A DNA stretch of 63,775 nucleotides, filler included, from Neolecta irregularis DAH-3 (taxonomy: Eukaryota), in assembly GCA_001929475.1 (NCBI GenBank). It is 5 parts of 5 records of this genome, joined end to end, with 100 filler letters (N's around TTAATTAATTAA, not from the genome) between each part and the next. Parts side by side here need not be neighbours in the genome. Positions count along the whole stretch, not along the records: positions 30,441 to 58,894 come from LXFE01000146.1; 4 more parts are not named here. The stretch is one strand, 5' to 3'. Position 1 is the stretch's first letter; each line of letters starts with the position of its first letter. A model generated the notes under the pieces. It saw only the letters and a program-made list of their open reading frames with translations. It searched no databases and was not told where the DNA came from. Both the position numbers and the translations under genes were made by a program. This document shows positions 37,909 through 50,945 of the stretch, one piece after another.

Positions 37909-39825
37909 TTTTCCCTTCAACTGTTGGTTCAAAAGATCCACGACTTCAAAGAGAAGATATGGAGGTTAAGTCTTAAAGAATCGACTGGCACGTTATGAAT
38001 TGGTAAATCGGCGTTATCTCGACAACCAAGTCGGATCCAAGTAAAGGGCGAAGTGTGATATGAGTATAAGCAATCCCAAAAACTGATGAGTCAGTGGAGA
38101 ACTAAAGGTAGGTACTACACTGATCGCAATTAGCTGTATCAAAGCTCTGCAATTGCAATGCACGACTAGAAATCGATACAAAGACGTTGCAGTTCGGTTG
38201 GTTCATGTAGAAATTCACACGCAAAAGAATCTAGTTCTGGAGCCAGGTGGTGTTCTTGACAATGACATTAGGTACAATGTTCGATCAGCCTATTATGCTC
38301 CAGGAGATCAAAAGCTGTACCATTCCCGCTTCGGTTTAAATACGACAATGAGTAAAGAAATCGGCTGTCTATCCACTTTACCATCCGGGAAACACACCAG
38401 AAAGAAATACAAGTATAGCGATCAATTTAGATTCCCGACACCTTTCCTTAATTCCTGCAGAAAGTTCTTCTTCCCATCTTTTAAAATACCATCTAAACCA
38501 TTAAGCCATGAAAAGAAAAAGAAAACTTGCTTTGCTTTCCCCATGCCGGTGCCGCAGTCTTCCATTCCCCTCCTTCGCAGGCATAAAGTGTTGGCTTATC
38601 TATCAATATCAGTTCTTAATTCTGGTCTGCTGAATGACCAGGCCCATTATACTGAGGATTTATAGCCTTGTTATATGCTTCAAGATACCCTGAAAAATCA
38701 ACAATATGTTTGCCTATTGGGCGAACCTTTGTTCAAAAAGTCCTTCACTTCATTTGAATTGAAATTCTTTACACTACTGTGCTCCTCCTGGACCACTTTT
38801 TGCCCCATTCCGTTTCGATTATGTTTGGAAGGTCCTGCGTTGTCAGTGCTACGTGTAAGGTCAGCCTATAACTTACCCATCGACGATTTCCGACGATGAT
38901 GATTATAGCCGTTATTACCTCCCCGAGCGAGGACTGGCGGTCTATAGAATCAAATTTATGTGAGCAAAGAGGCGAGTACCGAGAATCCGAGTTGTCGCGG
39001 GTTGGCATAAAAAATGCGATTCCACTGTGGAGACTGGAGGGAAGAATTTCCACCAGCGCTGATGGTTATGGTTTTTGCGAGGATTTTGCTTATTACTTTG
39101 TTATACAGGATATCGGATATCTATATGTATATACAAGAACCGGGTTTATAACGCATTGCGACTGGGATAGACGTATATAGAATGCCGTGTGTGATTAAAG
39201 AAAGTAATCCATCCGCCGAATATGGTTTTGTACAAGATAGCGAAAGTCAAAACAGGGAAGACGAGACTAAAGTGTTGTGAGACCGGGAATAACAGGCGGA
39301 TGAACACAGCACTGTATTACTTCTACATTATATATGCAAAGAAAACATAGAAAACGGACTCGAGAAATACACCTACCTGAGCGGACGGTAGATCAACGAC
39401 ACAAAACAGAAAAAGCTGAGGCAAAACTGGTTTTCACTGGCTGTATATATCCACAGCTGGTGTTTCACTGGATTTATGGATGACACTGAGAAAAATGCAT
39501 TTGCTGATAATGATCTACGCGGGTCAGCAGAACAAGCCACATTACCTATAGCAGGGACGGGGTTGTCTTTTAGGGCGCGGTCAGGAGTGTCAACGGAAAT
39601 GATGAGTTGAGTTATATGGTATATACTTGACGGAGGAAACATATCGATCTACCGCTTCAAACGAGCTGGAGCTGTATACTGGGGTTTTACGAAGACTGGT
39701 CAACGTTGTATAAACTCGAGAAAGAATTGATGATAAACAAGTACAGAAAAAGTAGAAGTTGCGAAGGTCGCTGATTACCGTCTCCATAGTACGAAGGATA
39801 TTGAGAATTTTTGTTTGCACAAGGA

Positions 39826-40785
39826 CTACCGCCTGTCGTAGTATCCACCGCGATCATCTCTGTCGTATCGTGCATAACTAAACAGGTCAAAATCAATAGA
39901 GTTTTAATACAAGACAAGTTACCTCGAATAAGAACGGTCTCGCTCCTCAAAGCCGCCTCGTCGGTCATCAAACCGTTCGTAGCCACCTCGTCGGTCATCA
40001 TAGCGATCTCGTCGTTCATAGCGATCATATCCGCGGTCGTAACCTCGGTCATAGCCACCTCGTCGAAAGTCTCCGCGGTATCCTCGACGAGGCGCGCCAT
40101 ATTCGGCTAAAATTCAGCACTCTGAATACCGAGAAAGAAAAACGTTGTTTAATAGGCCCATGGTAAAACCCAGGAGTAGGAGTTCTAGGACGACAACGTT
40201 TAGCCTTGTCGACACTTACTTGTCAGAGAGATTCATCGATAATAGACCTACCTCACAACACGACCATATCGCTCCTCACCAGTGATTCCTTCGCGCGCGG
40301 CGTCAGCTTCAGCACTGGTTGCCATACAAACGAAGCCAAATCCTCGAGACTCCTTGGTGTGCGGATCGCACATAATTTGGCACTTTTCAACTTTGCCATA
40401 TTTGGAAAACATTTCTTCAAGCTCTTGCTCATCCATTCGAGAAGCGATTCCAGTGACAAAAAGATTTGTTCCTGCGTTTGGAGCTTCCTCGGCTTGACTG
40501 ACAGATGAATAACGGTGGTTGTGGCAAGAGGTGACGTACCCAGAATTTCCATACCCGTTTCGAGCAGGCGAACGTTCCCGTCGATCGTCTCTTCGGTTTG
40601 CTCGAGGTGATCTGTCTCGATCACGTCGTGGCGGGCTTCGCCTCGAAGCTGGCGAGGCTGAGCGGTTTTGCATGCGAACATCTTCTCGATCCCATTCCGT
40701 GGCGCCTGCTACAGCGTAAAAAGTCGTGTTCAATCAGAAAGCGCTAACCATTCGGAGCACGTCTATCATCTTCCCAGTCGGCCAT
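39826..40785 (-). CDS. Tra2/SR-like single-RRM RNA-binding protein (6 exons)
   Basis: RS-rich N-terminus (RSASPASRRSPPRR), RNP2 NLFVTGI, RNP1 ESRGFGFV, VDKAKRCRPRTPTPG, and an RGGYD/DDRGGY-rich tail. Confidence 0.9.
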
Positions 40786-41152
40786 AATGGTTACAATATT
40801 CGATGAATAGCGGCCGGTGGTTAGGGAAGAGGATGGGGGTTGGAAACAGAAACAAAGGGGAGATGCCGCGTTTTGCCTGGTTTATATCGATTTAGCGGCA
40901 GGGAGTAGGCCAAAGACCGCTAATTAGTACGTTCATCCGAACTGATCACAATTTCATTACATACCACGCAGCTGTACGTGATGGGCCTACGAATCTACCT
41001 TAGTACATTATCACGAGGGCAATCATCTCATATATATTCACGACTTGATCGGTTTCGATTATACTAAATCGTCGATAAGGTGGGAGGAAACCTTCTGTAT
41101 TTAGATAGAATATGTGTAACTTCTGCACAAAATGTGAAAACAGTAAAAGTCA

Positions 41153-44100
41153 TTAACTGCCTAATGCATATATATCTTCAGGTTTCTTCTGTAACGACTT
41201 GATCTCTTTCGCGATAGCGACAAGGGTCTTCTCGACTTTACGAATTACATTATTCCGGTTCCAATCACTGCGATAACGCCATACTGCGTCCATACACCCC
41301 GCATTAACTTGTTCCAATTGTTCAACTGAAAATCCTATGGTGAGGTCTGCAAAAGTCCGATGTAACTGACGCAAAATGTTCCGATCTATCTCAAGATCCG
41401 GTTTCGGAGATGGTGGAGATGGCGTTGGATCTTTTGGTACTGGAAATACTACAGATGGATTTGGGTCAATTGATGAATCGCCTTTGATTTTTTCCTCGGG
41501 GACTGGTTGTTCAATAAGTGCGGGAGCTATATTTATCAACATGTGATTGAAAAAGATATGCCTACCTGGAACGATAGGAATAACGTTATTGTTTGGAGGG
41601 TCATCAACGCGTATCACTTGCGATGCAGGTTCATCGTCTCCTGCCTTGCTCAATACCGAGGTTTGACCAGTACCAAGTTGATCATTCGGCGGAAAGAAAA
41701 TTTCGCCGGCGCCATTCGGCTTTTGTTGATCGGTCTCTGGTTCTTCATCTTGCATAATGACGTCGTTATTATGATCCGCAACTTGCTCATTGTTTCCTAT
41801 ATCAGCTTCTACGGCCTCCTCAAGCTCCTTGCGATAGGATTCGTTATATTTACTCCGGCGATCAATCTCACGTTGTTCTAAGCGAGAGTATTCAGTCATG
41901 GAATGCTCGTCAAACGCGTCATCGAATGACCATTCAACGTTGTGGTACATTTGTTTTGCCTGAAACCGTCAACTAGGATTCAGACCAAAATGATATTATA
42001 CCTTTATAGCATTCTCTCGATTCCCAGATATTTCAGCATCTTCAACAATCAGTTTTATATCATTCAAGAACCCCTTTGGATGAATGTAGAAGCCATTCCA
42101 AAGACGTTCTTCAATGACATCGAGACTCATTCCGTGATAAACTTTTCCAGTTGCGTTCTCCATGAATTTTCCGTCTTCAAGACGGGTGATTACTGCCATC
42201 TGGGAAGCTGGGTTATCGGTATCGGGGCCGAAAGCTTCGCTAAGATCGCCCACAGGAGTGGGCTCAATTTGATTAACCTTATCAAGATCCTAGCCCATTA
42301 ACGTGACAACTCGAACAATTCAGACAATACAATCAGGGGTTTTTTAAATTTCCGATTCGAGGGTTGTTGTTTAATTAGATGTAAAAACGATGATAATCTC
42401 TGCTTTAATAAACGCTTGAGCTGAGGATCTTTGTTTCCTAATGCTCGAAGCTCTTTAGGGGTAAACACCTTATTTTGATCCTCAATTCCAACTACCTGCA
42501 ATTCCTCAAGAATTCGAGGTTTGCGTTTTACAGCATCAGGGAGCGACGTCGGTGCAGCTGCAATGTAACCGATTAGTGAGTTAAAATAGTTTACTATCAT
42601 ATCCTACTATAATCAGCCGTGAAATCTACCAGGCAATGCACCCTCGTTGGCGATGATACTTCCACCCTCCCAAGCATTGAATACCCAAACCAATTTTTGA
42701 CGTGCGGGTGAAGTTCATCAATATCACAATCAGCGAATCCCAGTAAAAGAACACTATCGGCTGGTCCCAAACTGCGTAACAATGTCGAGAAGGTACTTCG
42801 AATAGTCTCGCTGACTGCTTCGTACCAAATGTCTAACCCAGCAATGAATAAGACAGAGGGCTTATGACGACGAACTTCGACGAATGCCTGTATCAATGCG
42901 GCCTCTGGGGTCTGAAGACTCAGAAATGATCCAAAAGTAAACTTTACCCTGGAGGAGTCGCCCATCAAAAATCCCAGATCAAGGCTTTGAACATGATAAC
43001 CTTCGAAAAAATGGAGCGCTGCTGCCGCAAGATATCGTTGCCCCATTCCCGATTGCCCATAGATGAGTAAACGGGGCCTAAATACCCTTGACGCTTCGAA
43101 TCCTACCTTGTCAATATAGGACTATCGGACATAGTTTACTCTGCAGCAGGGTCTCGCGTTCAAAACCATCTTCGCCTTCTTCTTCAAACATTGATTCTTC
43201 AAGAACAGTTTTTCTCTTCTGTTCAGGGAGCATGCTGGCCAATGAAGACTTGATACTTTCGAACGTTTCACCAAGAAGGGGTGTAATGTGGTCAGGTAAC
43301 GGTGCAGCTCCAGAAGTGCTACTTCTCTCTGACGAAGGCACAATTTCTGCAGATTAAAGATATTCTCATATGTGAACTTACTTCTAATTGCCGTCATGAA
43401 ATCTCTTGCTTTCACCTCAATATTCGCGGTATCAATTTTCAGCTTGTCCACGGTCGAGTATATTTGAGGATACCGCCTCTGAACTGCATTCAATGCGGCT
43501 TCCGTGCAAAGTGCCCGGAGATCGGCGCCTCCATAGCCTTTTGTTAACTGGGCCAACTCCTTCTTGAAGTCCTCAGAGAGTGGTGGATCCCACCCTTTCG
43601 TATGAATATCAATGATTCCCTTTCGCGCAGTAATTTCAGGTAACGGAAAATAAAATTCTCGGTCGAAGCGGCCCGGCCGTCGTAGTGCCGAATCAACGCT
43701 ATCAGGACGATTTGTTGCACCGATTACAATTACTTGCCCCCGACCGTCCATCCCGTCCATTAAAGCAAGCAAAGTTGAAACTATTGATGCATGGATTTGT
43801 TCTTGTTTCGATGATCGAACGGGCGCAAGACCTTGCAATGAATTATACTTCACTCAGGGAAAACTACCGTCGATTTCATCAAAGAATATGATACTTGGTT
43901 GAGTAGCCTTTGCCTCTTCGAATAATAGTCTGAGTTGTCGTTCTGCTTCCCCGACCCATTTCGATAGACAATCCGCTCCTTTACGCATATAGAAGCTAAT
44001 GTTTCGGCCTTCAGTTGAACAACTGGCAGCGAGAGCTCGTGCCATAAGTGTCTTGCCTGTCCCTGGAGGTCCATGGAAGAGAACTCCACGCGGCGGTGTG

Positions 44101-45564
44101 ATATGGAACTTTTGAAATATCTCAGGATAAAGGAGGGGAAGAGTAACCATTTCTTTCAGCTGGTTGATATCAAGAGGTAAGCTTGAGAAGAAGAGAAAGA
44201 GACATACGATCGCTTAGACCGCCCACGCTTTCAAAGGATACATTTGCATCGACACCGAGGGGATCCGTATCAGCAAGGTCTATCGGTTAGTTCAAAGCTG
44301 AGGTTACATACTATTGATGTTCTTCACTCTACCAAGATTTGCAGGGGTTCCCTGTGTTATATGAGCAGGTGTAAGTCCCAGAGCATTCCCCCGTTTAAGC
44401 TCATCGTCCTAGCAGTCAATAATGTTTACTGGCGAGAAGCACACCGAGCTATCATACCCTGGCATTGCGCCAAACCCACTAACCGTCCCGAAAAAGCTCT
44501 TTGACAACCCAGAAGTGCGACTTTTTGAAGGGCCGCCTAATCCCATGTTTTGCATGTTATCATCCGCAGGAGGGATATAATAATTGACTTGTTTTCGTCT
44601 TCTTAGTTCTACTTGACGTTGTTGATTTCGCCTTGGTCGATCATTTAATTCTGCAATCTCATCGTCTAAAGTTTCGTATTCTTGAAGAGCAGCTCGTGTT
44701 CGTGCACGAGTCTTTCCACGGGGCAATATTTCATGGTCAACAAAGTTGTTTGGTTCAGGAGAAGAGGTTTCAAGATCCAAAGCATCAGGATCGCCTGAAT
44801 TATTATCCTCTTGGTATGACTCTTCTGAAGAGTCTGAAGTTGCTCGCTTGCGCGGTGGGCGGCGATTTCGAATGAGTCGCTGGCGAGATCTTCCTGCTTG
44901 TCGCTCTGACATCGGCTGCTTGCGGGATGGTTTCTTAGTTCCCCGGTGAAGTCTTGGAGGTTTTGGAGCCGAATAATCCGATATATCTTCCCGGAGATTA
45001 TCTTCTTCTTGCTCCTCTTCTTCTTCGTCAAAATCATCTTCATCTTTGATAACAACTGATGCGCGTGATTTTCGCTTTTTGGGGTGTATTTTATCTTCAA
45101 CGTTAAAGTGCGATTCCTCTGTTGCAACAGGGTGCAACAGAGAAGATCTTCGAGACTCTTCCTCTGGTTCCGTGCTATCTCTTTGGGCGCTTCGTAATTT
45201 AGCCGGCGACACTTTCAATTTGATGACATTCCCCCAGCGTTTCGACACTTCGATTTGTTCATCCGAAATTTCTTCAAAGTCGGAGGACCCAGAGCTTTCA
45301 GCATAAATCTTCCGGTCCCGTTTTCGCAAAGAATGACCGCCACTGGTCTCGACAGAATCCAAACTTTGACGATTCCTTGAATCAGTGCGCTTGCGTTTCC
45401 TAGTATCTGGCATTAGATGTTTCTGAGCCCCGATCTATGCCTTGTTCGCAGTTAGCGACCGGCATAAAGAGTCGCGATACCGGTATGATATCGACTTTGT
45501 CCTTGGAAAAGTCAGCATCGTGAAGACCCAAAGTACATACCAATGAGCCGTTGGCAATAACCAT
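41153..45564 (-). CDS. YTA7: Bromodomain AAA+ ATPase histone chaperone Yta7/Abo1/ATAD2 (start 45564 or 45413)
   Basis: LADTDPLGVD, VGGLSDHINQLKEMVTLPLLYPE, GVLFHGPPGTGKT, MRKGADCLSKWVGEAERQLR, FFDEIDGLAPVRSSKQEQIH, LRRPGRFDREFYFPL; second AAA domain and non-canonical bromodomain. Confidence 0.96.
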
Positions 45565-46512: not shown

Positions 46513-46983
46513 CAGTATGTCCAACTGCCCGCCGAGGAGGTCTAAACCGCCCACCCGCCGGAGAGTGTTCCTGCAGGCGGTTGTGCGGTTGTGCGGGTTG
46601 TATAAAAGGAACAGAGTGATAAAGTGTATGGCATGGTATTTTGCCACAAAATTGATGTTAAGCGTACTGCGTACGCATATATGCTTACTACATTTCTACT
46701 TCTATAACTCTATTACGTTATTCTAATGCACTGTGTTGTTCTTGCCTTTTTGTTAGTTAAAGTCCTTTCCATGAGGAGAAATAATAGCAACTGAAGAAGT
46801 AGCCAGATGAAAATCAATTGTGTTAGCAATATTTGTTATTTTTAGTAGGTGCGAGATTGCGAACTTCAAGTCTGAACCACAAAATGTTATCAGACTCTAT
46901 AAATTAGTAATTCCTGCGGCAGGCGGCAGGTTTTAGTCACCCGCCCGGCGGAGGCGGGGTCGGGCGGGCAGTTTGGCACACTG
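46513..46983 (+). mobile_element. Non-autonomous hAT element, CCCGC-repeat family
   Basis: TIRs CAGTATGTCCAACTGCCCGCC and GGCGGGCAGTTTGGCACACTG; flanks CCCATTCC/TCCATCCT (5/8); shares internal GCCAGAT..AAATCA..TTAGC segment with 16415-17072. Confidence 0.85.
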
Positions 46984-50106: not shown

Positions 50107-50945
50107 ATGGGTATTATGTCGATCTCAGAGCATAATTTTAACCCAAGGAAGATACATTGGCTTATCATCCCCTAATAACACAAACCCTTGCGTATTCATC
50201 AACAGTGGTGGGTAGAGATAAAATCTACCGGGCACTTCAGTACTGGTCTCGGTTTTATGCCTGGTATCTATATCGTAAAGGATATTCAAATGAAACAATC
50301 GAACCCTGGACCGCGCTTAAAAGTCATCTCGGTACAGCGAGGAAACTCATGCGAATCGGGAAAACCGTTGAGCACCTCAAGGCTGCTGCAGTTGCACTTA
50401 GAGATCGGAGCTCAAAAAATGATATACTGAGATACTTAGGAGTCATTAGACAACTTGGTTATGGAGGGTATCTCACGTTAGATATTGCTTCTTGGGCAAA
50501 CCTCGCTACGGAGTTTTAACTTATATTTCAGGCATATTCAGTTAAGTTTATCACGCTAAATAATCCCAAAAAGGTAGCAGAAGACGCCTATCGATTTTGG
50601 GCTGTGGGTTTAATCACTAGTATTGTTGCCGGATTATATAAACTCCATATCAATCTAGCTTCCGCCAAAGAACTCGCCTCAGAGGAGAAGACTGGGCCTA
50701 CCAATATCAAAATCAGAAGATTGCAAAAGTGCCATCTTGTATGTGGTATATTCTTATAATCTAGTGATCAAACTGCAATCTTTTATCAATTGATCCAAGA
50801 TTTCCTTGATATCACTATTCCAGGATCTGCCCTGGATTACTTCAAATTAGATGATGGGCTTGTTGGATTGGCTGGTGTAATCAGCAGCTTTATGGGTGCA
50901 AGAACTCAGTGGAAGAAAGTTGCAGCAAAAGACAAGGCTGCTTGA
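50107..50945 (+). CDS. PEX11: Peroxisomal membrane protein Pex11 (4 exons)
   Basis: LAYHP, TVVGRDKIYRALQYWSRFYAW, ARKLMRIGKTVEHLKAA, RQLGYGGYLTLD, AYRFWAVG, LIQDFLDITIPG, DDGLVGLAGVISS. Confidence 0.94.

Follow-up and report, generated by a model that had tools for sequence, protein, structure and literature searches.

Few rules of splicing are as strict as the AG at intron ends, and fungal annotations show on average 98.7% GT-AG introns (PMC7072748). Human introns with TG ends, as characterized in the passages on such sites in Szafranski et al. 2007 (PMC2374985), occur in 36 genes and are U2-type, with a pyrimidine at -3 and a purine at +1; the TG is described as always secondary to an alternative AG within 28 nt, is never the sole site and is never orthologous to an AG. 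GT-TG introns are also on record in Drosophila (23 of about 60,000, of which 22 show a similar alternative splice; PMC4528330) and in Ganoderma (22, or 0.024%; PMC11590231), and, of human non-canonical sites as a whole, roughly one in four has been called constitutive (PMC4176328). In Saccharomyces cerevisiae, loss of Prp18 or deletion of its conserved loop leads to more UUG and AUG ends and to ends located 7 nt past the branch point, with help from upstream U-rich tracts, and at one site the loop deletion raises non-AG use beyond that of the null mutant (Roy et al. 2023; the relevant sections of PMC10711555). The discussion of the same paper describes a fixed branch-to-AG distance of 7-8 nt in Debaryomyces hansenii, and that discussion does not mention non-AG ends for this species. 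In Fritillaria borealis, a lineage-wide departure from GT-AG, with 95% of introns non-canonical, has been tied to a changed spliceosome part, namely duplicated U2AF (as set out in PMC13326754).

Here we describe a GT-TG intron in the AAA domain of the YTA7 gene of Neolecta irregularis DAH-3, located in a window (the whole stretch of DNA that was analysed) of 63,775 nucleotides, filler included; feature coordinates are collected in Table 1. The locus shares with the human tandems the U2-type intron, the TG end, the pyrimidine at -3, the purine at +1 and an AG within 28 nt, here with downstream AGs at 11 nt (CAG) and 18 nt (AAG); however, the TG is here the sole form seen, alone leads to a full-length product, and stands where the ancestor had AG. 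The Drosophila and Ganoderma introns have the same pair of dinucleotides, whereas the present case lies in a conserved ATPase core. The likeness to the yeast prp18 mutants extends to the UUG end, the branch-proximal 7-nt position, the upstream pyrimidines and an altered Prp18 loop, but the yeast non-YAG (BG) ends are mutant, minor and mostly aberrant, while Neolecta is a wild fungus, its mRNA is functional and its loop is substituted, not deleted. A close 3' end is likewise found in D. hansenii. Compared to F. borealis, the departure in Neolecta affects a few percent of introns at most, and U2AF1 gives one normal match.

Table 1. Positions of the features at the YTA7 locus and of the further TG-ending introns (unprefixed positions count along the window).
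Feature	Position	Strand	Remarks
YTA7/ATAD2/Abo1 ortholog	41153..45564	(-)	extent per public model P0015
YTA7 exon 3, 72 nt	44208..44279	(-)	joints 44170/44208 and 44279/44312
YTA7 intron 3, 37 nt, GT-TG	44171..44207	(-)	phase 1, within His codon; sequence and joint 44170/44208
5' splice site GTATGT	44202..44207	(-)	each position is the commonest letter of the donor matrix
Uninterrupted pyrimidine run, 18 nt, upstream of branch site	44185..44202	(-)	sequence
AG upstream of predicted branch A, not used	44182..44183	(-)	intron would be 26 nt, with a stop
Predicted branch site CTTAC	44177..44181	(-)	putative branch A at 44178, 7 nt from intron end
3' splice site TTG	44171..44173	(-)	-3 pyrimidine and -1 G retained, T at -2; DNA contig and spliced contig
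CAG 11 nt downstream of TG	44160..44162	(-)	out of frame; no use seen in contigs
In-frame AAG, acceptor of public model P0015	44153..44155	(-)	7 residues deleted; no use seen in contigs
YTA7 exon 4, AAA domain start, with Walker A and B	43868..44170	(-)
Second spliced GT-TG intron, 35 nt, ends TTG	39888-39922	(-)	neighbouring RRM-protein gene; X2 joint 39887/39923, CA..AC
GT..TTG intron, 35 nt, peroxisomal ABC transporter gene	G000:C2660:5889-5923 (L208:739-773 (-))		splits signature region
GT..TTG intron, 36 nt, TERT (telomerase reverse transcriptase)	G000:C2660:15253-15288 (L206:2054-2089 (-))

The identity of the gene follows from the AAA exon, the top solved-structure matches of which are Abo1 and Yta7 (E values of 6.5e-58 and 7.2e-55), and from the exon 4 translation, which from its residue 1 onward aligns to Abo1 of S. 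pombe and Yta7 of yeast; the short pieces from YTA7 exon 3 and TERT have no Pfam match. We enumerated all pairs of GT, GC or AT donors with alternative acceptors around the junction. On the minus strand, intron 3 opens with GTATGT and closes with CTTG, and splicing to this TG end at 44171 gives GGLSD-HINQLKEMV. Splicing from the 44207 donor to the AG ending at 44182 or to that ending at 44160 does not keep the frame open across the Walker A motif, and splicing to the AG that ends at 44153 keeps it at the cost of seven residues; the original prediction had foreseen a stop, a lost frame and a seven-residue deletion for these three sites, respectively, and the enumeration agrees. The TG is the only acceptor that yields the full-length YTA7 product. 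The seven-residue spacing that it restores is kept in 104 of the 111 homolog segments among the matches listed, in line with the earlier claim that only this end recovers the conserved pattern. The remaining seven segments are five gene calls that read through the intron, one late start, and P0015, the public Neolecta irregularis DAH-3 protein, which is 99% identical to the exon 4 translation and splices to the AG at 44153, thereby lacking the seven conserved residues. An in-frame 22-nt GT-AG alternative, which would add five residues, was rejected because it is contradicted by the spliced joint 44170/44208.

The region is covered by two runs of one study (P1), X1 and X2, and the evidence consists of contigs, not reads. 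A single X1 contig of 11,197 nt, with a depth of 439, spans 39500-44926 and shows 0 other letters over this range. At 44927, X1 does show a variant, at about 5% depth, so a 5% allele would have been seen. This genomic contig reads CAA, rather than CTA, at 44171-44173 on the plus strand, the very comparison by which the TG end had been proposed to stand or fall. X1 is possibly the source of the public assembly; it rules out an assembly error and is not equivalent to a second individual. The X2 contigs skip introns, so that X2 is RNA-derived, despite its kind label 'DNA?'; its sample, S2, carries a different organism label from that of X1.

In X2, a contig of 4,304 nt connects 44170 directly to 44208, with CA..AC on the plus strand, i.e., GT..TG on the gene strand. 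The joint has no ambiguous letters (both=0), so the cut cannot shift and the missing stretch is exactly 44171-44207; the displayed X2 pieces contain 0 other letters. By our own arithmetic, letters 1350-1822 of the record (473 letters) equal genomic positions 43830-44443 minus introns of 36, 37, 32 and 36 nt; with 473 record letters for 473 exon bases, nothing is inserted at the joint. The bin depth of 86.3 equals 101.2 x 214/251, indicating that no other X2 contig covers the intron. Among the 14 intron-like joints listed, 12 are GT-AG and two are GT-TG, and the nine other YTA7 joints among them are all GT-AG. None of the joints listed connects the donor at 44207 to an AG, and transcripts that use the downstream in-frame AG, named beforehand as evidence against the TG end, are absent from the X2 contigs, from which rare forms drop out. 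The GT-TG intron at 44171-44207 is real and spliced: the spliced X2 contig and the X1 DNA contig agree, and our confidence in this is very high. The TG is the sole form seen in contigs, which lose rare forms, and its use may be constitutive, as the original prediction had it.

The original prediction had treated a T-for-A base error as an equally good account of the TG end, and, as far as contigs can tell, this part did not survive the X1 contig, which at its depth of 439 has 0 other letters at 44172. An error of this kind, or a difference between samples (a genome that has TAG, or an RNA donor with an AG allele), could draw on the possible identity of X1 with the assembly's own source, on the other sample code and organism label of X2, and on the fact that an intronic base, here the T, is invisible in a spliced contig. 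However, the independent re-assembly has the T, an allele at 5% would have been visible, the X2 pieces are clean, and the four TTG ends described here would need four separate errors; we consider this explanation very improbable.

The intron has a GT donor with the U2-type consensus and is removed exactly, and orthologous canonical introns exist; with no AG at its 3' end, it is itself not a canonical GT-AG intron. Neither a U12 donor nor a U12 branch consensus is present, which argues against the minor spliceosome. Folding of the RNA around the intron ends revealed no stable structure (z = +1.11), and IRE1-like cleavage has against it this lack of a stable fold, the U2-type donor GTATGT and the GT-AG ends of the orthologous introns, although the fly Xbp1 intron does end in TG (as given in PMC4528330). 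Removal by either of these routes is extremely improbable.

We compared the intron to its counterparts in relatives, as had been suggested. Out of 80 fetched loci, 17 eukaryote-like loci were examined: ten have no intron at this place, and seven have one at the same codon position and in the same phase. All seven end in AG (one shows the acceptor side only), and thus an ancestral AG changed to TG by a single substitution at -2. It is likely that the intron is an ancestral U2-type intron, whose AG acceptor became a TG in the lineage of Neolecta, and that it is still precisely removed as the main form.

Further TG-ending introns bear on the claim that 3' splice-site recognition is relaxed in this fungus, and they strengthen it: in addition to the second spliced GT-TG intron in the window, two others, elsewhere in the genome, are forced by the protein sequence. 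The second spliced case sits where the coding region of the RRM-protein gene ends, ~4 kb from YTA7 intron 3. Without splicing, the frame stops within this intron, and TG splicing extends the protein by two residues. Splicing to an AG located 10 nt beyond the TG would append an RD-rich tail; this AG has the better branch motif, yet the TG is taken, and no use of the AG is seen in contigs. The gene, an RRM/SR-like neighbour of YTA7, is presumably Tra2-like, judging by its motif. The donor of an RNA-supported intron at 40107-40143 (-) is very weak, with a run of T after the GT. Within the last long YTA7 open reading frame, a 39-nt in-frame GT-AG intron at 41527-41565 (-) is truly spliced.

The two introns elsewhere were examined by DNA and protein comparison. 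In the peroxisomal ABC transporter gene, the flanking exons align gap-free to an intron-less paralog, and the 95 nt that follow the donor contain no AG, i.e., there is none within 61 nt downstream of the TG. In TERT, no AG occurs within 32 nt, and use of the next one, 33 nt on, would cost the protein residues that match those of human TERT. All four TG introns (YTA7, RRM, ABC, TERT) end in TTG. Non-AG ends are still rare: by eye, 17 of 17 introns in four neighbouring genes end in AG. There is one unselected TG case per about 30 nearby introns, which at the Ganoderma frequency of 0.024% would occur with a chance of about 0.7% (own arithmetic); the TG rate thus looks higher here than in curated annotations, from one unselected case.

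These introns also bear on a human-type TG-AG tandem, in which U2AF1 would commit via the CAG downstream of the YTA7 TG, with the TG chosen at the second step by an unchanged spliceosome. The CAG, ending 11 nt past the TG, is inside the 28-nt limit (PMC2374985), Neolecta U2AF1 is intact, the RRM-gene intron likewise has an AG 10 nt on, and a similar alternative splice accompanies 22 of the 23 fly GT-TG introns (PMC4528330). On the other hand, the ABC and TERT introns lack such an AG over 61 and 32 nt, respectively (at the DNA and protein level only), the full-length YTA7 product comes from the TG alone, and the human TG sites described in PMC2374985 include none with an orthologous AG, which the YTA7 intron has. 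Such a tandem is unlikely.

The architecture of Neolecta introns was characterized with a self-trained gene model, unvalidated and allowing AG ends only, on 528 kb of the genome (55 stretches). The model predicted 1,108 introns, of which 1,014 are 31-43 nt long. Of its scored branch sites, 888 fall 6-11 nt from the intron end (143, 233, 265, 137, 84 and 26 sites at distances of 6, 7, 8, 9, 10 and 11 nt, respectively), a narrow range that is partly built in because the search was limited to 5-13 nt. A GC donor was found in 100 of the 1,108 introns of this unvalidated set. The putative branch motif of YTA7 intron 3 lies at a typical distance, its position being predicted from sequence, and Neolecta U2 is normal; judged by eye, YTA7 introns 1, 2, 4 and 5 have the same 7-nt branch-to-end spacing as intron 3, and the ABC and TERT introns each have 8 nt. 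The RRM-gene intron, with its best consensus branch A only 5 nt before the TG, fits a distance rule poorly.

In the yeast P complex, as described in 10.1101/212811, G(-1) pairs with G(+1), A(-2) pairs with the branch A, Gln1594 of Prp8 reads the -3 pyrimidine, and the conserved Prp18 loop buttresses positions -3 and -4; a U at -2 results in a step-2 defect. TTG would retain two of three contacts of this complex. In the mechanism that we propose, splicing would be of the ordinary U2 kind, with the 3' end set 6-10 bases beyond the branch A and a U at -2 tolerated. In YTA7, the docked end would be the TTG at 7 nt, with the G(-1) and pyrimidine(-3) contacts kept and the pair of A(-2) with the branch A lost. 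The competing AGs would be disfavoured, one of them located before the branch A and the others 18 and 25 nt past it, and the best-strength donor and long pyrimidine run probably compensate for the missing A(-2); such features favour non-AG use in yeast (section 17 of PMC10711555). We think it probable that the TG introns are part of a lineage trait, i.e., branch-anchored, AG-tolerant 3' ends, and, with similar confidence, that the major spliceosome defines these tiny introns by their donor and branch site and then docks whichever end lies 6-10 nt beyond the branch A.

Among the spliceosome parts that read the 3' end, the Prp18 loop is the sole departure found in those checked, which were U2, U6, U2AF1, two Prp8 fingers and Prp18. 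The branch-pairing and ACAGAGA motifs of U2 and U6 are normal. U2AF1 gives a single genome match, with both zinc fingers close to those of S. pombe, and the Ser and Gln that are mutated in cancers are kept at what we take to be the corresponding positions. In Prp8, the alpha-finger (with the position of Gln1594) and the RNaseH finger have almost exactly the human sequence, and Slu7 and Fyv6 are both present in the genome. Intact Prp8 stretches lie on contigs C2538 and C2136; broken or partial copies were seen on G000:C4303, C2568, C1324, C4326, C1195 and C171. The U6 snRNA gene (L099:269-417 (-), G000:C1963) contains a 50-nt GT-AG intron right after the ACAGAGA box.

A single contig carries the Prp18 gene (G000:C702, L083 minus strand; protein P0121). 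With the Neolecta Prp18 exon as the query, 147 sequences were fetched, of which two were unanchored and one was the query itself, leaving 144. At the position of yeast Trp193, Neolecta has Asn, whereas Trp is found in 144/144 anchored homologs; at the position of yeast Asn190 it has His, a residue found in 0/144. Over the 15 columns before the loop's intron, Neolecta shows seven departures from the consensus versus at most six in 143 homologs, and its loop is the most divergent of 144 sequences. The lead-in to helix 5 (QVAHV in most aligned homologs) is also replaced, as are a His and an Arg past the loop's intron, where read-through of an intron in many homologs makes the columns noisy. The loop is standard in Saitoella, a named relative. 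Judging from this sequence, Neolecta would belong with a damaged Prp18 loop, not with an absent Prp18. The decayed Prp18 loop in Neolecta is new here.

Two readings of the loop have to be weighed. Yeast substrates with a branch-to-end distance of 7-8 nt can do without Prp18 (section 22 of PMC10711555), so the loop may have decayed through the short distances, as a cause or as a passenger. In the first reading, short distances would lower the need for Prp18, its loop would decay, step-2 fidelity would fall, and AG-to-TG changes would be fixed. We tentatively favour this causal role of loop decay in AG tolerance, at somewhat short of an even chance; against it stand that a single lineage is involved and that the yeast data concern deletion or whole-loop removal and minor isoforms, not these substitutions. 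In the second reading, TG would be tolerated only since very short branch-anchored introns offer no other end, with decay of the Prp18 loop a passenger or another step-2 factor (e.g., Prp22) causal. This differs from the first reading in the cause alone. The independence of 7-8 nt substrates from Prp18 would permit the loop to decay without effect, but the loop is the one departure among the parts checked, and at one yeast site its deletion exceeds the null in non-AG use (PMC10711555); a passenger loop is a real, if doubtful, possibility. Returning to the causal role of the loop, N. irregularis may, again at less than even confidence, be a natural low-fidelity Prp18 variant, with a major spliceosome that measures off its 3' ends from the branch point and a Prp18 loop without its invariant core, in which constitutive non-AG introns would reach the percent level with no helper AG, including those in YTA7, telomerase and the peroxisomal ABC transporter.

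A wild fungus that depends on TG ends for full-length conserved proteins indicates that the AG rule can be relaxed. If the change in the Prp18 loop is causal, it pinpoints residues that enforce this rule, and is directly testable in yeast. The public Neolecta gene models are wrong at TG introns (P0015 lacks seven AAA-domain residues), which matters because the genome serves comparisons of early ascomycetes. Early accounts of the Neolecta genome reportedly mentioned frequent non-canonical splicing. We found no paper on Neolecta splice sites, which may differ for subscription papers, meeting abstracts and supplements: the main text of the genome paper (PMC5309816) contains neither 'splic' nor 'intron', three of its supplementary files do not contain 'canonical', and the main text of PMC7072748 mentions neither Neolecta nor GT-TG. 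Phage and viral collections contained nothing relevant.

Elsewhere in the window, the PEX11 gene has an intron at 50111 that was considered as GT-GG and rejected, since the N-termini of homologs show an ordinary GT-AG intron, 50111-50151 (+). In this first intron, the nearer AG, 6 nt from a branch-like A, is skipped for an AG at 10 nt; the second intron, at about 50496, has a GC donor. The JGI protein P0315 is 85% identical to the PEX11 product and may be from a close relative. A repeated element at about 46590-46930 shows high depth and loose ends, with one joint common to both runs.
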